From Thermoplasmata archaeon (GTDB lineage: Archaea > Thermoplasmatota > Thermoplasmata > Methanomassiliicoccales > Methanomethylophilaceae): a stretch of DNA of 64,000 nt. Under the pieces are notes generated by a model. That model was not told where the DNA came from. It saw only the letters and a program-made list of their open reading frames with translations, and did not search any database. The stretch is taken from the NCBI GenBank assembly GCA_015063165.1, contig SUSZ01000002.1:36517-100516 (forward strand), given 5' to 3'. Positions within the stretch are counted from its first letter, which is position 1, and each line of letters opens with the position of its first letter. Below are positions 618-17,137 of the stretch, piece by piece. The translations under genes were made by a program, and so were the position numbers.

Positions 618-1778
618 TCAAAGGTACCTGTTCTGCCTCATCCTCTCGAGGGCGATCTTTATGCGCTCGACAGGCTCGGTGACGGTCATCCTGATGTATC
701 CGTCCGCGGACTCGCCGAACCCGGATCCCGGGGTGACGATGACTCCGATGTCGATCATCTTCTGCGTGAATTCGGCGGAGGACATCTTGCAGTCGAACCA
801 GACGTAGAAGGTTCCCTTGGGCATCTTCACGTCGAATCCGAGCTCTCTGAGCCCGTCCACGAGGACCTTCCTCCTCTCGGCGTAGACGGCCATGTTGTCA
901 GCGATGACCTTGGGCAGCTTGCCGTCGTCCCCGTACAGCTCCAGCGCCTTGATGGCGGCCTTCTGGATGAAGATGGGGGCTCCGGAGTCGGTCTGTCCTT
1001 TGCACTTCTTCAGTCCGGCGACGAGGTCGGGGTGTCCCACCGCGTATCCGAGGCGGAATCCGGTCATGTTGAACGTCTTGGAGAACGAGCCGAACTCGAT
1101 GCAGTCGGGTCCTGCCTGGAGCGCGGAGGGCGCCTGGTACCCGTCGTAGCACATCTCGGAGTAGGCGTTGTCGTAGCACATGATGGTGCCGTTGAGCTGG
1201 CACCACTCGTACACCTTCTTCAGGTACGCGAGGTCGCAGGTGGCTCCGGTGGGGTTGTTCGGATAGTTCAGGTAGAGCATCCTCGCTCCCTCGGGGCACT
1301 CGTCCACGTCGAGGAGCCAGTCCTTTTCGGCCCTCAGGGGGACCTTCACGCATTTGGCCTCGTTGAAGACGGTGGCTGCTCCGGAGTACACGGGGTATCC
1401 GGGCGACGGCGCGACTATGGTCTCTCCTTCGTTGACGAAAGCCTGGGCGATGTTGAAGATGGCCTCCTTCGACCCTATGGTGATGCATACCTGGGTGTCG
1501 GGGTCTATGTCGAGCCCGTATCTCCTCTTGTACCATTTCGCCACTGCCACGCGGAGGTCCTTCTCCCCCGCGGACGAGGAGTACTTCTGGTTCTCGTTCA
1601 CGTACGCGGCTTCGCACATGGCGTCCACTATGCACTTGGGCGTGGTGAGGTCGGGGTCTCCGATCCCGAAGTCAATCATGTCCCATCCGGCCGCCCTCTT
1701 CTCGGCGGACAGCTTCTCCAGCCTCACGAAAAGGTAGGGTGGTATCTGTTTCAGCCTCTCGGCCTGTTCGAATCCCAT
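618..1778 (-). CDS. dapL: LL-diaminopimelate aminotransferase (DapL-type PLP aminotransferase)
   Basis: 386 aa. N-terminus IPPYLFVRLEKL...IDFGIGDPDLTTP, NPTG motif and PLP-lysine motif SFSKTFNMTGFRLGY. First gene of a dapF-lysA-lysC co-directional block. Confidence 0.8.
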   Translation of the reverse strand: MGFEQAERLKQIPPYLFVRLEKLSAEKRAAGWDMIDFGIGDPDLTTPKCIVDAMCEAAYVNENQKYSSSAGEKDLRVAVAKWYKRRYGLDIDPDTQVCITIGSKEAIFNIAQAFVNEGETIVAPSPGYPVYSGAATVFNEAKCVKVPLRAEKDWLLDVDECPEGARMLYLNYPNNPTGATCDLAYLKKVYEWCQLNGTIMCYDNAYSEMCYDGYQAPSALQAGPDCIEFGSFSKTFNMTGFRLGYAVGHPDLVAGLKKCKGQTDSGAPIFIQKAAIKALELYGDDGKLPKVIADNMAVYAERRKVLVDGLRELGFDVKMPKGTFYVWFDCKMSSAEFTQKMIDIGVIVTPGSGFGESADGYIRMTVTEPVERIKIALERMRQNRYL

Positions 1779-1790
1779 TTCAAATCTCCT

Positions 1791-2615
1791 TCAGATTGTT
1801 CCCTCGAACACCAGCTCGGCAGGTCCTTCCATGAGGACGTACCCCAGGTCCCTGTCGACAGTTATCTTGAGCCATCCGCCCGGCAGATGCACGTCCACCG
1901 GCTCTCCGAACGGGACGAATCCCTGGAGGGCCGCCGCCGTTGTGGTGGCGCAGGCTCCTGTGCCGCAGGCGAGGGTCCATGCGGCGCCTCTTTCGTAAAC
2001 TCTTATATCTATCTTGCCGTCGTCGATGCTGCAGAATTCGACATTGGTCTTGCGGGGGAAGAACGGATGCTTCTCCAGGATCGGTCCGAGCCTGTCCACG
2101 GTGGCGTCGTCCATGGGCGTGAACGTGATGAAGTGGGGGTTGCCCATGGACACCGCGCTGGCGGTGAACTTCACTCCGTCAGCCTCGAAAGGCTGTCCGA
2201 TGAACCTTCCGTCGTGGTCCACGGGAACGGTCCTCCCGTCGAGTATGGGCGCTCCCATGTCTATGCGGACGGTCTTGACCTTCCCGTTCTCGACCTTGAC
2301 ATCGGCCTTCAGGTCTCCGGCCAGGGTGTGGATCGAGAACGAATCCTTCTTCACGATGCCGAAGTCGTAGGCGTGCTTGGCGACGCATCTGATGCCGTTC
2401 CCGCACATCTCTGCCTCGCTGCCGTCCGCGTTGATGATCCTCATGGTGATGTCGGTGCTCTCGCCGGGCATCACGTACAGGACGCCGTCCGCTCCGACGC
2501 CGTAGTGGCGGTCGCAGACCTTCTTGCACCATCCCGCGTCGATCTCCAGGCTTCCGTCGGATCCGTCCAGCAGGACGAAGTCGTTGCCGATTCCCTGGTA
2601 TTTCCAGAACCTCAT
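1791..2615 (-). CDS. dapF: diaminopimelate epimerase
   Basis: True start MRFWKYQGIGNDFVLLDG at 2613-2615. The 392-aa track ORF is an upstream extension into lysA. Catalytic Cys motifs EMCGNGIRC and LACGTGACA are present. ATGA overlap with the lysA stop. Confidence 0.9.
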   Translation of the reverse strand: MRFWKYQGIGNDFVLLDGSDGSLEIDAGWCKKVCDRHYGVGADGVLYVMPGESTDITMRIINADGSEAEMCGNGIRCVAKHAYDFGIVKKDSFSIHTLAGDLKADVKVENGKVKTVRIDMGAPILDGRTVPVDHDGRFIGQPFEADGVKFTASAVSMGNPHFITFTPMDDATVDRLGPILEKHPFFPRKTNVEFCSIDDGKIDIRVYERGAAWTLACGTGACATTTAAALQGFVPFGEPVDVHLPGGWLKITVDRDLGYVLMEGPAELVFEGTI

Positions 2616-9425: not shown

Positions 9426-10439
9426 TCACATCCTTATGTTGATCTTGTGCCTGCAGCAGGAGCACCTGTCGCCGTCCAGCGATACGATGTCGACGAGGTA
9501 CCCGAGCCTTCTGATCACGGCCGTCCCGCATTCGGGGCAGTAGGTGTCGTCCGCGTCGTCGGTGAGGGTGTTCCCCACATATACGTAGTTCAGCCCGAGG
9601 TCCATCCCGAGCTCCCTGCAGCGCATGACGGTCTCCACGGGAGTCCATTGGACGTCCATCATCTCGTTGTCCGGGTGGAACCTGGTGAAATGGACAGGAA
9701 CATCCTCAGAGAGCTCGTTCTTCACCCATTCGCAGAACTTCGTTATCTCTTCGTCGGAGTCGTTGTATCCTGGTATGACCAGATAGGTCAACTCGAGGTG
9801 CACCCCGGACTCATGGACAATCTTGGCGCTCCTGAGGACGTCGGCCAGATGGGCTCCGCAGACCTTCATGTAGAACTCGTCGGTGAACCCCTTCACGTCT
9901 ATGTTCATGGCGTCGGTCACCGCGCACAGCTCCTTCAGGGGCTCCTCTGAGACCAGCCCGTTGCTGACAAGGATGAGGCCGAGGTCCGGATCGGTCTTCA
10001 TGACCTCCAGGATGTACTCGAACCAGATGACCGGCTCGTTGTACGTGAACGCTATCACGTCCTGCATCTCGTTGCGGCATAGCTGGACCAGTTCGTGGGG
10101 CCTCTCGTAGGTGGTGCGCTTCTTCCCGGACGGGAGCTGGGATATGGCGTAGTTCTGGCAGTGCTTGCAGGTCATGTTGCACCCGACGCCCCCTACGGAG
10201 AAGCATCTGGAGCCGGGCCGGTAATGGTACAGGGGCTTCTTCTCGACGGGATCCACGCATAAAGAGGATACTTTTCCGTAGGAATACGCGACCAGCATGT
10301 CCTCGTCGCCTCTGCGGGAGCCGCATCTCCCGTAGCTTCCGACCGCTATCCTGCAGTTGTGCGGGCACAGCCTGCAGATATAATGGTCCCCGTCCCTCTC
10401 GTAATACCTCGCTTCGATGCGTTCGTTAATAACGGCCAT
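9426..10439 (-). CDS. amrS: AmmeMemoRadiSam-system radical SAM enzyme
   Basis: 337 aa. N-terminal Cys cluster CRLCPHNCRI, radical-SAM CNMTCKHCQN (CX3CX2C), C-terminal CPECG...CSCC, which is typical of this pyruvate-formate-lyase-activase-like family. Confidence 0.8.
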   Translation of the reverse strand: MAVINERIEARYYERDGDHYICRLCPHNCRIAVGSYGRCGSRRGDEDMLVAYSYGKVSSLCVDPVEKKPLYHYRPGSRCFSVGGVGCNMTCKHCQNYAISQLPSGKKRTTYERPHELVQLCRNEMQDVIAFTYNEPVIWFEYILEVMKTDPDLGLILVSNGLVSEEPLKELCAVTDAMNIDVKGFTDEFYMKVCGAHLADVLRSAKIVHESGVHLELTYLVIPGYNDSDEEITKFCEWVKNELSEDVPVHFTRFHPDNEMMDVQWTPVETVMRCRELGMDLGLNYVYVGNTLTDDADDTYCPECGTAVIRRLGYLVDIVSLDGDRCSCCRHKINIRM

Positions 10440-11358
10440 TTCCGATCCTGCTCCTCTTTCCGTCAGCCAGAAGCTCAGGGAATCCGCTGTCGTCTACCAT
10501 TCCTATGATATGGAATGGAACTTCTGCATCGTATATCTTCCTGAGCATCCCCCTGTCGGCGGTGAACAGGAGCTCGTATTCCCCTCCGCAGTCGAACAGG
10601 AGGTCTCTGACTGGGACGCCGGTCTCTTCGGAGATCTCCTCGACGTAGTCCTCGCGGGGTATGAACTCCAATTCTATGTCCATCCCTACTCCGGAGGACT
10701 TGCAGAGTGTGTTTAGCGCCGTCCCCAGGCCGTCGGAGAGGTCCATGCAGGAGGATACCGCCCCGGTCGCGGACAGGGCTACTCCTTCCTCCATCTTGGG
10801 AATGGGCATGTAGAGGCTGTCTCTGGCCTCCTCCGATTCGATGCCGTGGTCTATCGCCGTCAGAGCCGCGGCTGGGCCCCCTATCGGTCCCGTGACGGCC
10901 ACTATGTCTCCCGGAACGGCGCCGGACCTGAGCATGGGCTTCCTGTCGTCCATGGTCCCGAGAGCCGTTCCTGCGACGATTCCAGGTCCGCGCTTGGTGT
11001 CTCCTCCCACGATCCCGGTGCCGCAGAACTCAGCGCACTGGTCGATCCCGCTCATGATGTCGTAGGCGGCCTGCACCTCCAAGGTCGAAGGCAGCGCAAG
11101 TGCCGCGAGGAATCCCGTGGGCCTGGCGCCCATCGCCGCGAGGTCGCTGAAGTTGACCGCAGCGGCATACCATCCGAACTGCTCGTATGTCATCCCCGCT
11201 GGGAAGTGCCTGTCGAAGGTGACGATGTCGGTGGTCACGACGGTGCCGTCAAGAGTGATAGCTGCGTCGTCTCCGGGCCCCACGCGCCCTTCAGGCTTTA
11301 TGAAGCTCCTGAAATCCTCTATGAGCTGGCGTTCGTCCACGTCTCCTAGCAGGGTCAT
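10426..11358 (-). CDS. thiL: thiamine-monophosphate kinase
   Basis: 310 aa. PurM-like AIR-synthase fold motifs GDDAAIT, TTDIVTFDRHF, GGDTKRG. 14-nt overlap with amrS. Confidence 0.85.
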   Translation of the reverse strand: MTLLGDVDERQLIEDFRSFIKPEGRVGPGDDAAITLDGTVVTTDIVTFDRHFPAGMTYEQFGWYAAAVNFSDLAAMGARPTGFLAALALPSTLEVQAAYDIMSGIDQCAEFCGTGIVGGDTKRGPGIVAGTALGTMDDRKPMLRSGAVPGDIVAVTGPIGGPAAALTAIDHGIESEEARDSLYMPIPKMEEGVALSATGAVSSCMDLSDGLGTALNTLCKSSGVGMDIELEFIPREDYVEEISEETGVPVRDLLFDCGGEYELLFTADRGMLRKIYDAEVPFHIIGMVDDSGFPELLADGKRSRIGNGRY

Positions 11359-11435: not shown

Positions 11436-12731
11436 TCAATCGCGAAGCGAAGTTATCGGCACCACGTACACCCCGTCTTTGCGCTTGTAGGCGTATCTGC
11501 AGACGCCGCAGATGACACATAGGAGGCAGGGTGTCCTTCCACCCTTCTCCTCGAACATCCTGGACATCTTCAGCAGATTGGAGGCGGCCTCGTCTATCTG
11601 GTTCTGGCCGAGTTTTATCTCGAACATCCCCCAACGGCCGTCGTCCAGCTCGACGATGGCATCGACTTCATTTCCGCGGTCGTCGCGATAGTGGAACAGT
11701 GTCCCGTCGTCGACTTCGGAATACACCCTCAGGTCTCTTTCGCACATCGCTTCGAAAAGGAATCCGAACGTTCTGATGTCGTTCATTGCCGATTCCGGCG
11801 TCATCCTGAGCGCTGCGAATGATAACGAGGGGTCGGCCAGATGTCTTTTCGGATTTTTGCCGACACGGATGGATGAACGCAGGTTAGGATCGAACGCGGT
11901 CTGTTCCCAGACAACGTTCAGTCTTTCCAGAATCTGAAGATAGTCGTTGAATGTGGATTCGCTTATGTCCTCATCATCGAACTCTTTCATGTCTTTCCTG
12001 AGCGTCGTCCCCTTGACCACAGTGGATTCGTTGCGTGCCAGCGCGCGAATCAGCTTCATCATCTTCTTCGGGTTCCTTCTCGTCCCATCTATCCCTACCG
12101 CGTCATGCTGGCATAGCGTTTCGAGATACATGCGGTTAGCCAGTCCGGAATCTGTTCCTTTTTCGAGGTTAGAGGGCCAGCCTCCTCTGGAGACGAGATG
12201 GATCAGATACTCAAGGTTCGTGTCCTTGGGTTCTGTTCCTATCGGTTCGCCATCGAAAAGGCTCATTAGAGACACCGAACCGTCCGAATCCTTGGATTCG
12301 AACAACGACATGGTCTGCAGCTCCAGAGGGGCTATGCGACCGATTCCGCTGTGAAGTATCTTGTCCTCGTCCTTTTTAGGGACGGAGTAGGAGCCGCAGA
12401 GGATGTACTGGCCTTTTTTCCCTGTACGGTCCACGCTGAAGCGGACATCGTTCCAAAGCTCAGGTATGACCTGCCATTCGTCTATAAGGCGGGGGCTGTC
12501 TCCATTCAGGGCTATGGAGTGGTCGACCTCCACGGCTGATATCGCTTCCGAGTCCAGCTGGATCTCGCTCGCACAGTGGTTTCTGCTGATCCAGGTCTTC
12601 CCCGAGTTCTTAGGCCCTTTAACATAGACCGCTCCGAACGTCTTGAGATAGGCGGACATCTTTTTGTCCAGGAGGCGGTCCATGTATCCATCGGGTCTCA
12701 GGGTCATGATGCCCCGTACGTCGTCCATCAT
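11436..12731 (-). CDS. COG1373-type AAA ATPase with DUF4143-like C-terminal domain (paralog 1)
   Basis: 431 aa. Walker A GPKNSGKTW, Walker B-like LIDEWQ. C-terminal EVDAIVELDDGRWGMFEIKLG (ExD...ExK nuclease-like signature). Confidence 0.8.
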   Translation of the reverse strand: MMDDVRGIMTLRPDGYMDRLLDKKMSAYLKTFGAVYVKGPKNSGKTWISRNHCASEIQLDSEAISAVEVDHSIALNGDSPRLIDEWQVIPELWNDVRFSVDRTGKKGQYILCGSYSVPKKDEDKILHSGIGRIAPLELQTMSLFESKDSDGSVSLMSLFDGEPIGTEPKDTNLEYLIHLVSRGGWPSNLEKGTDSGLANRMYLETLCQHDAVGIDGTRRNPKKMMKLIRALARNESTVVKGTTLRKDMKEFDDEDISESTFNDYLQILERLNVVWEQTAFDPNLRSSIRVGKNPKRHLADPSLSFAALRMTPESAMNDIRTFGFLFEAMCERDLRVYSEVDDGTLFHYRDDRGNEVDAIVELDDGRWGMFEIKLGQNQIDEAASNLLKMSRMFEEKGGRTPCLLCVICGVCRYAYKRKDGVYVVPITSLRD

Positions 12732-12742
12732 TAATAATCATA

Positions 12743-12800
12743 GGTTTTTCAGACTTTCTGCCAAGGGTTTTTCAGACTTTCCTCCAAGGGTTTTTCGAAG
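12743..12800. repeat. tandem 23-bp repeat (2.5 units) in divergent promoter region
   Basis: GGTTTTTCAGACTTTCTGCCAAG (12743-12765), GGTTTTTCAGACTTTCCTCCAAG (12766-12788, 21/23 identical), then partial GGTTTTTCGAAG (12789-12800). Confidence 0.9.
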
Positions 12801-12895
12801 ATCACCAGTTTCATGACCTGTCCGGTCCGCTCTGTCCGCTCGCTCTTCACAACGTTTACCTTAATTATTAGTGCACTGTTAAGAGGTCAGATACT

Positions 12896-15229
12896 ATGAT
12901 GATTGACGTGAAGTACGGCAAGGACGGAGTCCAGAAGGTGGACATACCTGATGCCAACTACATCGGCACGTTCTACCCCAAGGATGTCGTCTGCGGGGAC
13001 CCCGACGCCGTCATAGGGGAGTCCATCGACGACCCAATCGGCTACGAGTCCCTGGAGAAGTTCCTGGAAGGCGGCAAGGATGTCGTGTTCATCGTGAACG
13101 ACGGAACCCGTCCCACCCCTACGGCCAAGGTCCTCGACGCTCTCTCCAAGAGGATGGACCTGAGATCCGCCAGGTACCTCATCGCCACTGGAACCCACAG
13201 GGACATGACCGAGGAGGAGTACGCCTTCGTCTTCGGATCACACCGCCAGGAGCTCAAGGACCGCATCATTTGCCACGATGCGAAGAACTCCGAGTGCGTG
13301 TTCCTGGGAACCTCCAAGAACGGCACCCCTATGGAGGTCAACAAGGTCGCCGTGGACGCTGACAGGCTCGTGATAATAACCTCCGTGGAGCCCCACTACT
13401 TCGCAGGATACACCGGCGGAAGGAAGTCGTTCCTGCCCGGAGTCGCCTCCTTCAAGACCGTGGAGGCCAACCACAAGCTCGCCATGAGCATGGAGGCCCA
13501 GTCCCTGGCTCTCGAGGGCAACCCCGTCCACGAGGACATGATGGACGCTCTGGAGACCGTGAAGGGAAAGAAGATCTTCTCCATCCAGATGGTCCTCGAC
13601 AGGCATCAGAACATCTACAAGGTCGCCTCCGGAGACCTGAACCAGGCCTTCTCCCGCGCCGTCGGATGGGCTAACGAGGTCTTCTCCGTCCCCATACCCG
13701 AGAAGGCGGACGTCGTGATCTCCGTCGCTCCCTACCCCATGGACGTGGACCTGTACCAGTCCCAGAAGGCTTTGGACAACGGAAAGTGGGCTCTCAAGGA
13801 GGGCGGAACCATCATAATGGTCTCCAAGTGCAGGGAAGGGGTCGGACACGCCACCTTCCTGAAGCAGCTGTCCACCTCCAAGGACCCCAAGCAGGTCCTG
13901 GAGAATCTCAAGGCGGAGTACAAGCTGGGATACCACAAGGCCGCCAAGATGGCCGAGATCGCCACCTGGGCGAAGATCTGCGCCGTCACCGACCTGGACC
14001 CCAAGATCATCTCCGATGCCAACATCACCCCCTACAGCAACGTGGCCGACGCTGTCGGCGATGCTCTGAAGGAGAAGCCCGACGCGAAGGTCATCGTCCT
14101 CATGGACGGAAGCGTGACTATCCCCAAGGTGGGGCCAGTGTTCAGCACCGAGAAGCTCGAGGCAGTCAGGAAAGCCGTCAACGTCTGTACCATGTGCGGA
14201 TTCTGCAAGAGCGTCTGCCCCTCGTTCAAGGCCATCGGATGGGACACCGCACTCTCCAGGGGACGTATCGTCCTCACCTACGGCCTGCTGAACGGCGACC
14301 TGGAGGCGGACGAGTCCGTCGTCAGGAACATGTACACCTGCACGACCTGCGCCGACTGCGTCAGGAGATGTCCCTCCAAGGTCGAGATCGTCGACATCAT
14401 CGAGATGTGCCGCGCCGACCTGGTCAAGAACGGGCACATCCTGCCCAAGCACAAGACGATGTGCGAGAACATCCTCGCCGACGGTAACCCGTTCGGGGAG
14501 AAGACCCCCAGGCGCGAAGCTCTGAAGAAGACGCCTCACAACGCCGAGGTAGGATACTTCGTGGGATGCACCGCCACCTACAGGTCCAAGAAGACCGCGG
14601 AGGCCACGTTCTCCATCCTCGACAAGCTCAAGGTCGACTACACCACCGTGGACGAGGTCTGCTGCGGTTCCGTCATGCAGAGGGTCGGATGGCCCCAGGA
14701 GGACGTCACCGAGCTCATGAAGAAGAACGTCGAGGCCATCAAGGCCCTCGGGATCAAGAAGCTCGTGCTCGCCTGCGCCGGATGCTACAGGATGTTCAAG
14801 CTCGAGTACCCCAAATATGTGGATGTTCCGTTCGAGGTCCTCCACATCACCGAGTTCCTGGCGACCCAGGACCTCAAGCTTAAGCCCATGGAAGGAAAGG
14901 TCCTCACCTACCACGACCCCTGCCATCTCGGCAGGCACTGCAACGTGTACGAGGCCCCCAGGGACGTCATCAAGCAGATCCCCGGAGCGGACTTCAGGGA
15001 GATGGAGTTCAACCGCAAGACCAGCCACTGCTGCGGAGGCGGAGGAGGGGTCAGGTCCGCATACCCCCAGGACTCCATGAACATCGCGAACACCAGGCTG
15101 GACGAGGCCTCGTTCGCGGACGTCATCATAACCACCTGTCCGTTCTGCGTCAACAACCTGGAGTCCGCCAAGGGCGACAGGAAGGTGCAGGTTAGGGACC
15201 TGGTAGAGATCGTGGACGAGCTCCTATGA
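12896..15229 (+). CDS. fusion protein: LarA-like (DUF2088, nickel-pincer racemase family) N-terminal domain + HdrD/GlpC/LutA-like Fe-S CCG-domain oxidoreductase
   Basis: 777 aa. The N-terminal ~420 aa carry LarA motifs IATGTHRDMT and EPHYFAGYTGGRKSFLPG. The C-terminal half carries two ferredoxin motifs (CTMCGFCKSVCP, CTTCADCVRRCP) and two CCG motifs (VCCGS...CAGCYRM; HCCGGGGG...CPFCVNN). Confidence 0.8.
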   Translation: MMIDVKYGKDGVQKVDIPDANYIGTFYPKDVVCGDPDAVIGESIDDPIGYESLEKFLEGGKDVVFIVNDGTRPTPTAKVLDALSKRMDLRSARYLIATGTHRDMTEEEYAFVFGSHRQELKDRIICHDAKNSECVFLGTSKNGTPMEVNKVAVDADRLVIITSVEPHYFAGYTGGRKSFLPGVASFKTVEANHKLAMSMEAQSLALEGNPVHEDMMDALETVKGKKIFSIQMVLDRHQNIYKVASGDLNQAFSRAVGWANEVFSVPIPEKADVVISVAPYPMDVDLYQSQKALDNGKWALKEGGTIIMVSKCREGVGHATFLKQLSTSKDPKQVLENLKAEYKLGYHKAAKMAEIATWAKICAVTDLDPKIISDANITPYSNVADAVGDALKEKPDAKVIVLMDGSVTIPKVGPVFSTEKLEAVRKAVNVCTMCGFCKSVCPSFKAIGWDTALSRGRIVLTYGLLNGDLEADESVVRNMYTCTTCADCVRRCPSKVEIVDIIEMCRADLVKNGHILPKHKTMCENILADGNPFGEKTPRREALKKTPHNAEVGYFVGCTATYRSKKTAEATFSILDKLKVDYTTVDEVCCGSVMQRVGWPQEDVTELMKKNVEAIKALGIKKLVLACAGCYRMFKLEYPKYVDVPFEVLHITEFLATQDLKLKPMEGKVLTYHDPCHLGRHCNVYEAPRDVIKQIPGADFREMEFNRKTSHCCGGGGGVRSAYPQDSMNIANTRLDEASFADVIITTCPFCVNNLESAKGDRKVQVRDLVEIVDELL

Positions 15230-16155
15230 TCGATCTGAGAAGGGCGTCGGCCAGAGGAAGGCCCTCGATAATGGGCATACTCAACGTGACGCCCGACTCC
15301 TTTTCCGACGGCGGGAAGTGGGGCTCTCCCCATCTCGCCGTCGAACACGCTTTCGAGATGGCCGACTCCGGCGCCGACATCATCGACATCGGGGCGGAAT
15401 CCACCCGTCCGTCGGCCTCTCCGGTTTCCGCAGAGGAGGAGATAGCCCGCCTGGAGCCCGTTCTGAAGGAGCTCGTCCCCTCGCTGAGCGTTCCTGTCTC
15501 CGTAGACACCATGAAGGCCGCGGTCGCCAGGAGGGCGGTGGAGCTCGGGGCGGAGATGGTCAACGACGTCTACGGCCTCAGAGGCGACGGCATGGCGGAG
15601 TTCTGCGCCGAATCTGGCGTGGCCGTAGTCATAATGCATATGGAAGGGGTCCCCGGGACCACTCATTCGTCCGTCATGGGGGACGATTACATGGATTCAA
15701 TCCGTGATTTCCTCAGGGAGAGGACGGAATCCGCGCTGGAGGCGGGCATACGCAGGGACAGGATAGTCCTCGATCCTGGCATAGGGTTCGGCAAGACGCC
15801 AGCCCAGAACACGGTCATAATGAGGAGCGCCACCTTCTTCTCCGAAGGGTATCCCGTCCTTATCGCTCCTTCCAGGAAGAGGTTCCTTGCCGAGGCCTTT
15901 CCCGGGATGGACCGCGACCAGGCGACCTACGAGGCCGTGAAGGAGGCTGTCGCGTGGGGCGCAGACATGGTCCGCGTGCACGATGTGGCCGGAACGGTCA
16001 ATGCTCTTCGTCTTTCGCATCGATCTTTCTGGCGTAGAAGTCGTAGCATATGTTGTCGCGAAGGCTCCTCGAGAAGCAGTTCGCGTAGAACAGGCCGGAG
16101 ACTATCGATATCGCGGCGAGCGGGATCAGATACTCCACGTAGTACTCCGCGATAG
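15226..16155 (+). CDS. folP: dihydropteroate synthase (pterin-binding domain)
   Basis: IMGILNVTPDSFSDGG, DIIDIGAESTRP, VSVDT, NDV, DPGIGFGKT, SRKRF, VRVHDV motifs. ATGA overlap with the upstream fusion gene. The last ~45 codons are an unusual tail lying antisense in the convergent gene and end at a TAG, so the 3' end is uncertain. Confidence 0.8.
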   Translation: MIDLRRASARGRPSIMGILNVTPDSFSDGGKWGSPHLAVEHAFEMADSGADIIDIGAESTRPSASPVSAEEEIARLEPVLKELVPSLSVPVSVDTMKAAVARRAVELGAEMVNDVYGLRGDGMAEFCAESGVAVVIMHMEGVPGTTHSSVMGDDYMDSIRDFLRERTESALEAGIRRDRIVLDPGIGFGKTPAQNTVIMRSATFFSEGYPVLIAPSRKRFLAEAFPGMDRDQATYEAVKEAVAWGADMVRVHDVAGTVNALRLSHRSFWRRSRSICCREGSSRSSSRRTGRRLSISRRAGSDTPRSTPR

Positions 16156-17137
16156 CCATGACGGTGTTACCGTAGTAGATCGATAACAGGAAGCTGAAGA
16201 AGAACAGTCCCAACGTGGCGAATCCCATGAAGAGCTGCTGTCTGGCTCCTTTCCACAGATAATACGGCCTGGGAGCGCCGGAAATGACCCTCGCTCCCGA
16301 GCTCTTGATGCACAGCCAGGGTATGACCATCGCGGGCAGGAAGATGGACAGGATGATCATCACCCTGACGATCAGCTCCTTCGGCACGGTCTCCAGCATC
16401 ATGGGGTTCAGGAACAGCATCGAGCATATCAGCACCCCGAGCGCGAACGTGTATCCCGTCATCCAGACGAACGACGTGAGGTCTAGCGCATGGTCGTCCT
16501 TCTCCGGGACGAGCTCCACGCGGTCCACGTCGATGATGTCGGGGACCTTGAAGAACTTCGCAGCGGTATTCTTGCCATTCTTGTCGCCCCCTTCTACCGA
16601 CAGGAGGACCCCGGGCATGTACTTCGAGAGCATGGCGGAGATGGTCGTCAGTATGCCTATCGGGGCCATCAGCATGATGAACAGGGTGAACAGGAGGTCG
16701 GCAAAGCGGAAGTTGGCCGATACCGATTCCGTGCCTGACTCCTTTATGAAATCCAGGCCCTTCAGGAAAAGGACATCGTCGGCTCCGGTGACATGGACCC
16801 AGGCGAGCATCAGGGCGACGACCATGATGCCCATGATCATCCGCACCGGGAATGGTCCTTCATCCATGTAGGACGACGCCCAGATTCCAACGAAGGCGAA
16901 AGCGAGACCGAATATGACGCAGAGGCGGCTTATGATCATCCAGAAGTCGTAGTTCCCACGCCATACCGTGAGGACGATGGTCATCACGACGCATATGATG
17001 ATCAGCTTGGGGAAGATCTTGATGATGGTGGCGTCCCTCTTCTTAGCGCGGAGGTTCACCGCATACCCTCTTTTAAATGAGGACACGGCTTCGTCCAAGT
17101 CCTCCATCATGTTCTCCCTCGTCTCTTCTCTGTTCAC
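15998..17137 (-). CDS. polytopic membrane protein, function unknown
   Basis: 379 aa with about 9 hydrophobic segments. I recognise no family motif. Confidence 0.6.
   Translation of the reverse strand: MNREETRENMMEDLDEAVSSFKRGYAVNLRAKKRDATIIKIFPKLIIICVVMTIVLTVWRGNYDFWMIISRLCVIFGLAFAFVGIWASSYMDEGPFPVRMIMGIMVVALMLAWVHVTGADDVLFLKGLDFIKESGTESVSANFRFADLLFTLFIMLMAPIGILTTISAMLSKYMPGVLLSVEGGDKNGKNTAAKFFKVPDIIDVDRVELVPEKDDHALDLTSFVWMTGYTFALGVLICSMLFLNPMMLETVPKELIVRVMIILSIFLPAMVIPWLCIKSSGARVISGAPRPYYLWKGARQQLFMGFATLGLFFFSFLLSIYYGNTVMAIAEYYVEYLIPLAAISIVSGLFYANCFSRSLRDNICYDFYARKIDAKDEEH

Follow-up and report, generated by a model that had tools for sequence, protein, structure and literature searches.

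A LarA-type nickel-pincer domain fused to an HdrD2-type iron–sulfur protein in Methanomassiliicoccales, a candidate malate-oxidizing module

What purpose could be served by joining, in one polypeptide, a nickel-dependent enzyme domain of the lactate racemase (LarA) family to an iron–sulfur (Fe-S) protein resembling subunit D of heterodisulfide reductase (HdrD)? This question is raised by an open reading frame (ORF) located at 12896..15229 (+) of the window analyzed here, a stretch of 64,000 nucleotides from a Thermoplasmata archaeon of the Methanomethylophilaceae (order Methanomassiliicoccales; NCBI GenBank assembly GCA_015063165.1, contig SUSZ01000002.1, positions 36,517 to 100,516 of the forward strand). 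The host genome (2.28 Mb, 99.9% complete) carries McrA and therefore belongs to a methanogen, and its closest named relatives are metagenome-assembled genomes (MAGs) of Methanomethylophilaceae from sheep rumen. The original prediction, made from the letters of the window alone, had proposed a net 2-hydroxyacid dehydrogenase in which the LarA domain is wired directly to an HdrD-like electron-transfer module. The reading that we prefer, and to which we would give about an even chance, is that a malate racemase is tethered here to the subunit through which a GlcD-type D-malate dehydrogenase passes on its electrons.

As predicted, the ORF encodes a single polypeptide of 777 aa, followed by its stop codon; it starts with ATG and contains zero internal stops, and full-length fused homologues were found at 55–99% identity. 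Pfam searches placed Lar_N at residues 7–199 (E 1.6e-49), LarA_C at residues 270–406 (E 2.4e-18), Fer4_8 at residues 428–496 (E 8.8e-11) and two CCG domains ending at residue 755 (E 1.7e-31). The alignment with Lactiplantibacillus plantarum LarA (5HUQ) also bore out the claim that the LarA hallmarks are intact: D72, R75, H108 and H174 of that protein correspond to D69, R72, H101 and H167, K184 (the lysine of the GGRK motif, which tethers the nickel-pincer nucleotide, NPN) to K177, H200 to H193, and Y294, Q295 and K298 to Y287, Q288 and K291. The latter three, which bind the carboxylate, are kept according to the alignment with the solved LarA and Mar2 structures, and the eleven LarA hallmark residues are identical in 102 of 103 homologues. 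In the C-terminal half, the two [4Fe-4S] and two CCG motifs that had been read from the translation are all present. The cubane clusters would be bound by Cys 431/434/437/441 and 482/485/488/492, and each CCG motif (Cys 558/589/590/627/630 and 676/712/713/748/751) is a full C...CCG...CxxC; all 18 ligand cysteines, eight for the cubanes and ten for the CCG site, are invariant among about 100 homologues. An AlphaFold model, built from 28 fused or read-through pairs, showed both domains well folded (mean predicted local distance difference test, pLDDT, 86.5), with a disordered linker at residues 411–416 (pLDDT below 50) and an undefined interdomain geometry (predicted template modelling score, pTM, 0.53).

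It had been considered that the ORF might be two genes merged by a sequencing error near 14140. This was not borne out. The fused 777-aa protein belongs to a 99%-identical cluster with 73 member sequences, and independent sheep-rumen MAGs encode proteins with 94%, 92% and 86% identity that are fused at the same junction and form one clade with the window gene; compared with split relatives, the stop and start codons have been lost rather than frameshifted. An artefact of sequencing or assembly at the junction was thus ruled out. The reverse possibility, that the split forms are read through a recoded stop codon (selenocysteine or pyrrolysine), was likewise rejected, as TGA, TAA and TAG are all seen at this position, a normal ATG follows each of them, and many split pairs are out of frame.

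We also mapped the distribution of the two halves. A six-frame search found larA together with this CCG gene in all of 151 Methanomassiliicoccales genomes (34 genera, 7 families), mostly as two translationally coupled genes. In a census of the junction at about 87 loci, 13 were fused and 74 split. Between the stop codon of LarA and the start codon of its CCG partner, the split loci have 0–12 nt or an overlap, and 43 of them keep both genes in one frame, separated by TGA, TAA or TAG. The six-residue linker of the window protein stands where split forms have their stop and start codons, and fused junctions vary from lineage to lineage. When 88 pairs were placed on a tree, fusion required seven changes of state, of which at least four were forced by well-supported branches; the fusion therefore arose at least four times, and most parsimoniously seven times. 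Genes that are always coupled, and that were repeatedly fused and kept so, argue for a 1:1 physical complex of LarA and HdrD2, the name under which the Fe-S partner is discussed below. Outside this lineage, no fused form was present among the best 150 matches in 1.84 billion representative proteins, and one 644-aa match (P0209) proved to be a CCG protein with a different N-terminus, not a LarA-CCG fusion. The ESM Atlas search gave no usable match.

Nine loci (L069, L070, L103, L105, L106, L111, L113, L115 and L116) carry a larA-hdrD2-folP arrangement of the Methanomassiliicoccales type with 77–88% identity, in assemblies titled Bacteroides, Eggerthellaceae, Dialister, Prevotella, Bifidobacteriaceae, Lachnospiraceae, Ruminococcus and Firmicutes. 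These contigs are evidently mis-binned.

With regard to the LarA half, its best match in the PDB was the malate racemase Mar2 (6D6Z; E 7.6e-76). Q290, which precedes K291, and the ‘GHK’ motif (G345-x-H347-K348) are present and invariant, and the second catalytic histidine is followed by Y168-F169 where Mar2 has Y-K. A LarA homologue from Methanomassiliicoccus sp. (H729_01150) was previously assigned to group 4 of the family and labelled ‘MAR?’, the GHK signature having led to the prediction of malate or a close analogue as the group 4 substrate (Desguin 2020, PMC7583248). The same study listed COG0247 (Fe-S oxidoreductase), COG0277 (GlcD) and COG0294 (dihydropteroate synthase, DHPS) among the group 4 neighbors in its Table S1, where they were left uninterpreted, and COG0277 and electron transfer flavoprotein (ETF) among those of group 1 (Desguin 2020, PMC7583248). 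The substrate of the LarA domain is thus predicted, from its motifs and family placement, to be malate or a closely similar 2-hydroxy-dicarboxylate. The strict conservation of the two catalytic histidines fits the two-base equipment of a true racemase.

The enzyme would depend on a supply of NPN. A search of the host genome for the cofactor synthesis genes, suggested along with the original prediction, revealed a larE-larB-larC cluster (contig C23, 3849–6489), each gene scoring above its curated cut-off, and a second LarE-type gene (TIGR00268; contig C5:195–869, minus strand), also above cut-off; the window ORF is the sole LarA homologue of the genome. Throughout the order (n = 151), LarA-HdrD2 was found in 151 genomes, LarE in 135, LarB in 133 and LarC (PF01969) in 51, leaving 100 in which LarC is missing. 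In particular, Methanomassiliicoccus luminyensis, like every one of the 11 genus g22 genomes, has LarA, LarB and LarE without LarC, and no LarC substitute was found adjoining larB/larE in one LarC-less genome (G057, C1:652500–662500). The lack of LarC in two thirds of the order despite the presence of LarA, LarB and LarE poses the question of how nickel enters the cofactor. Furthermore, eight genomes of genus g6, which are 95–99% complete (e.g., G042, G122 and G126; loci L032 and L034), are without LarB, LarC and LarE and yet retain a larA-hdrD2 pair in which no cofactor-binding or catalytic residue has been lost.

As for the Fe-S half, an exact look-up identified WP_019177852.1 as its orthologue in M. 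luminyensis, where the genes are split and follow one another in the order LarA (WP_019177853.1), WP_019177852.1 and folP. This protein has been listed as hdrD2, a heterodisulfide reductase subunit, with no mention of LarA (Borrel et al. 2014, PMC4153887); the HdrD of the Fpo-like/HdrD energy-conservation model is WP_019178460 (hdrD1). A protein of the HdrD2 type is also annotated as HdrD in Candidatus Methanoplasma termitum. The fused protein is not the sole HdrD of its organism, as the host genome also encodes HdrD1 as a separate protein of 399 aa, besides an hdrC-hdrB pair, and its Fe-S domain is only 35% identical to the host’s own HdrD1. Outside the lineage, the Fe-S half has its nearest homologues, at 41–45% identity, in proteins encoded directly beside GlcD-type flavin adenine dinucleotide (FAD) dehydrogenases; HdrD1 and these GlcD-adjacent CCG proteins share 33–34%. 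Judged by these identities, the Fe-S half is closer to GlcD-partner subunits than to HdrD1. In searches with the C-terminal half, the best NCBIfam match was TfrB, over positions 123–486 and with 225 bits against a cut-off of 385, and the HdrB and HdrC chains were matched in the PDB. A thiol:fumarate reductase was ruled out, as neither TfrA/FrdA in the genome nor an SdhB-like part in the protein was found. The link to HdrD-based energy conservation that had been drawn for this gene is consequently not supported, since its Fe-S half is the HdrD2 paralogue and not HdrD1.

A candidate for the missing flavoprotein is encoded elsewhere in the host genome, by a GlcD-like gene of 477 aa on contig C49 (L135:5755–7185), unlinked to the window gene. 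Such a gene was present in all 119 high-quality genomes of the order, and in 22 of 22 and 2 of 3 genomes of the outside families having an adjacent larA-hdrD2 pair. The tally for the class Thermoplasmata includes one count from an unpublished genome (G238), on which no claim is based. In relatives, GlcD stands next to the homologues of one or both halves. In the Thermoplasmata family f23 (G169), a fumarase gene follows LarA on one strand, divergently from GlcD and CCG on the other, the CCG start overlapping the GlcD end; these proteins are 54% (GlcD), 52% (LarA) and 43% (CCG) identical to those of the host. Malic enzyme, LarA and GlcD genes are adjacent in family f21, with an ETF gene alongside, GlcD-CCG pairs occur in families f15 and f18, and the 41–45%-identical homologues of the Fe-S half named above are encoded in the arrangement POR-GlcD-CCG (L131) and in a LarN-like/GlcD/CCG/CoA-ligase cluster (L132). 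The closest bacterial LarA homologues, with about 52% identity, are encoded either in clusters of citEF, two Mdh genes, LarA, GlcD, fumarase and CCG, or beside genes for Mdh, malic enzyme or PGK. The fumarase, malic enzyme, Mdh and citrate lyase genes around the homologues also favor malate as the substrate. An oxidative role for the fused protein, as originally predicted, fits these contexts; the direct wiring of NPN to the clusters is not needed, as the GlcD-like flavoprotein offers a conventional hydride-to-electron converter.

The contexts also bear on the acceptor. Families f10 and f30 share the larA-hdrD2-folP operon of the methanogens and the same divergent AIRS-like neighbor, at about 50% identity, and McrA was found in 0 of 11 and 0 of 3 of their genomes, respectively; the module therefore does not depend on methanogenesis. 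With the pair present in Thermoplasmata devoid of McrA, the heterodisulfide that had been suggested as acceptor cannot be assumed. Among the papers searched, none made a connection between HdrD or Methanomassiliicoccus and LarA, DUF2088 or nickel-pincer enzymes, and the gene-context association appeared only in a supplementary table (Desguin 2020, PMC7583248).

In order to place the module in the metabolism of malate, we surveyed the relevant enzymes. Class I fumarase was encoded in 145 of the 151 genomes of the order, and canonical malate/lactate dehydrogenases (Ldh_1_N) in two, with none found in the remaining 149. In the host genome, neither an Ldh_2-type malate dehydrogenase (MDH) nor a FrdA/TfrA fumarate reductase was found, and malic enzyme is present. 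In the reading that we prefer, class I fumarase would hydrate fumarate to L-malate, which the LarA domain would racemize to D-malate; the FAD of the GlcD-like protein (C49, 477 aa) would accept the hydride from D-malate, with release of oxaloacetate. The flavin would carry out its usual conversion from two-electron to one-electron transfer, and the electrons would travel singly along both cubane clusters, reach the CCG site and go on to an acceptor, which in methanogens could be CoM-S-S-CoB, their heterodisulfide. The module would thereby substitute for the NAD-dependent MDH absent from the order. The substrate, a physical complex of the three proteins, the direction of the electrons and their acceptor are the parts of this scheme that we infer.

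Several points weigh against the scheme. In the order and in f10, the GlcD-like gene never adjoins larA-hdrD2; where the genome is complete, 40–105 kb separate them. The partner with which HdrD2 shows translational coupling and repeated fusion is LarA instead of GlcD. The match to the LarAH6 malate racemase family NF052593, the best in NCBIfam for the LarA half, did not reach its cut-off (378 against 500 bits), nor did that to NF052595 (282 against 462), and the malate assignment is based on motifs together with the gene contexts of relatives that are 50% identical. Malic enzyme is already an outlet for malate, which makes the argument from a missing MDH suggestive only; the AlphaFold model speaks neither for nor against a fixed electron-transfer geometry, and the coupling with folP is not accounted for by a malate model.

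The constant coupling of LarA and HdrD2, their four or more fusions and the lack of an adjacent GlcD gene in these lineages would also suit an enzyme that works alone, as a net 2-hydroxyacid:acceptor oxidoreductase. Here, NPN would take the hydride of malate or lactate, the 2-oxoacid would leave, and the reduced NPN would be re-oxidized directly by the [4Fe-4S] chain, the electrons ending at the CCG site, from which heterodisulfide or some other disulfide would accept them. In line with this, no flavin domain separates the halves, the linker being only about six residues long, CCG proteins often serve hydroxyacid dehydrogenases, and from redox potentials the oxidation of malate or lactate by CoM-S-S-CoB would be slightly exergonic. 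We nevertheless consider this direct dehydrogenase unlikely. All LarA homologues characterized up to late 2025 are racemases or epimerases, so that such an activity would be unprecedented, and hydride carriers of the nicotinamide kind normally pass electrons to one-electron clusters only by way of a flavin, a group that the protein does not contain. A stereospecific dehydrogenase would need one catalytic histidine, whereas both, as a racemase requires, are kept; in relatives, LarA and the CCG protein have a GlcD flavoprotein between them; the model, with its pTM of 0.53, predicts no defined interface between the LarA and ferredoxin domains; and the LarA-HdrD2 pair occurs in lineages without McrA.

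A looser relation between the halves, in which an ordinary malate racemase and a genuine second catalytic subunit of a (hetero)disulfide reductase with other partners, e.g., an Fpo-like complex, do separate jobs, and in which co-transcription and fusion are neutral consequences of a tight operon, seems to us quite improbable. It draws on the full HdrD/HdrB cysteine set of the Fe-S half and its annotation as HdrD or ‘hdrD2’, on folP, whose presence in the operon shows that unrelated genes can remain coupled, and on the fact that the loss of an in-frame stop by a single base change suffices for fusion. Repeated and retained fusion of unrelated enzymes is unlikely, however, and across orders larA-hdrD2 keeps its gene order even where identity has fallen to about 50%; HdrD2 has closer relatives among the GlcD-partner subunits than in HdrD1, and the pair persists in archaea without McrA. 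The persistence of larA-hdrD2-folP, in 82 of 84 loci of the order and in the McrA-less families f10 and f30, together with COG0294 among the group 4 neighbors (Table S1; Desguin 2020, PMC7583248), could instead point to a role in pterin or folate metabolism, LarA-HdrD2 supplying or recycling a metabolite or reducing power for the folP-encoded DHPS, for instance by hydride transfer on a pterin or by oxidation of a by-product such as glycolate. This we regard as very improbable: the LarA active site is of the 2-hydroxy-dicarboxylate racemase type, about 45% identical to Mar2 and with the carboxylate binders kept, and in relatives outside these lineages the genes found with LarA and CCG are those for fumarase, malic enzyme, Mdh and GlcD instead of folate genes. 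Conserved operons that pair folP with functionally unlinked genes are, moreover, known elsewhere.

Should the tethered malate racemase be confirmed, ‘HdrD2’ would be part of a malate- or 2-hydroxyacid-oxidizing module, and energy models that count hdrD genes would need correction. It would also explain the interconversion of malate and oxaloacetate without a canonical MDH in gut and rumen methanogens and in their non-methanogenic relatives, and it would offer, as a natural racemase joined to a redox partner, a test case for NPN chemistry coupled to net electron transfer. If the direct dehydrogenase were true instead, a net dehydrogenase that depends on NPN would be described for the first time, in the form of a malate (or lactate):disulfide oxidoreductase through which the electrons of organic acids could enter CoM-S-S-CoB reduction in methanogens.

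The coordinates of the fused gene, its parts and its neighbors are compiled in Table 1. The product of the downstream gene is a genuine DHPS, scoring 279 bits with TIGR01496 (cut-off 163), and the stop of the fused gene overlaps the folP start as ATGA (15226–15229), confirming the translational coupling that had been noted as an odd pairing. It is not an oddity of this gene: folP lies directly downstream of the CCG gene in the 82 of 84 loci mentioned above and likewise in McrA-less Thermoplasmata. In some lineages folP has an N-terminal extension of about 110 aa (381–401-aa forms), and in one Methanomassiliicoccus genome an additional ORF of about 266 aa (1285–2085, plus strand, of locus L130; G069:C9:7000–11800) stands between hdrD2 and folP, which may be a mobile-element insertion into the operon. 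Upstream, the AIRS-like gene is directly divergent from larA in distant relatives, so the DUF4143 gene that separates them in the window looks like an insertion. The 379-aa ORF at the end of folP is possibly spurious; in relatives its place is taken by a small DUF2116 gene.

Table 1. Features of the fused gene and its surroundings, in positions of the window
Feature	Position	Strand	Basis
Whole fused gene, LarA + HdrD2-type Fe-S/CCG	12896..15229	+	ORF list, translation, Pfam, NCBIfam, homologues
LarA-family domain, residues 1–410, Group-4 ‘malate-racemase-like’ homologue	12896..14125	+	PDB, NCBIfam, Desguin 2020 group
Active-site stretch with H101, H167, K177 and H193	13196..13474	+	Residue mapping onto 5HUQ
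Codon of catalytic H101	13196–13198	+	
Codon of catalytic H167	13394–13396	+	
Codon of K177 (GGRK, NPN-tethering)	13424–13426	+	
Codon of Ni-ligand H193	13472–13474	+	
Fusion junction/linker, residues 411–416 (VGPVFS)	14126..14143	+	Junction census, AlphaFold model
Ferredoxin-like 2x[4Fe-4S] domain, residues 428–496, CxxCxxCxxxCP twice	14177..14383	+	Pfam Fer4_8
Two CCG domains: Cys558–Cys630; residues 671–755	14567..15160	+	Pfam CCG x2
folP (dihydropteroate synthase), third operon gene	15226..16155	+	TIGR01496
Divergent spacer, 164 nt, presumed promoter region	12732..12895	.	ORF coordinates
AIRS/AIRS_C-family gene	10426..11358	-	Pfam; same layout in f10 and f30 genomes
DUF4143/AAA_14 ATPase gene, between AIRS-like gene and larA	11436..12731	-	
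379-aa ORF overlapping the folP end on the opposite strand	15998–17137	-	No Pfam or NCBIfam match

Each half of the protein has well-described counterparts. The LarA half shares its fold and domain pair with the malate racemases Mar1 and Mar2 (LarAH5/LarAH6), being about 45% identical to Mar2, and all NPN-binding and catalytic residues, the glutamine before the lysine and the GHK motif of these enzymes are also found in it. It departs from them in Y168-F169 (Y-K in Mar2), in its scores below the malate racemase cut-offs, and in its constant association with an Fe-S/CCG protein, by fusion or by coupling. The cysteine motifs of the Fe-S half are those of HdrD of HdrDE and of TfrB. Unlike TfrB, it scores below the cut-off of 385 and is without the SdhB-like [2Fe-2S] part, and, in contrast to HdrD, orthologous larA-hdrD2 pairs also occur in archaea that have no McrA.

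The architecture of two [4Fe-4S] clusters and two CCG domains is further shared with GlcF of GlcDEF (COG0247), with its fused form YdiJ (NF049975) and with proteins like PDB 9OJN. GlcDEF and YdiJ both combine a CCG Fe-S module with a GlcD flavoprotein, whereas in the system described here the flavoprotein gene is unlinked and the CCG module is joined to the racemase and not to the dehydrogenase. A similar logic is found in the lactate operons of the group 1 context that combine LarA with a GlcD-type lactate dehydrogenase and EtfAB, in which a racemase feeds a stereospecific FAD dehydrogenase and this, in turn, a dedicated carrier; in the lct operon of Acetobacterium woodii, a LarA-type racemase serves a stereospecific lactate dehydrogenase of the GlcD type. 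Compared with these operons, the substrate in the present case is likely malate, the carrier would be a CCG Fe-S protein instead of ETF, and the racemase is fused to the carrier.

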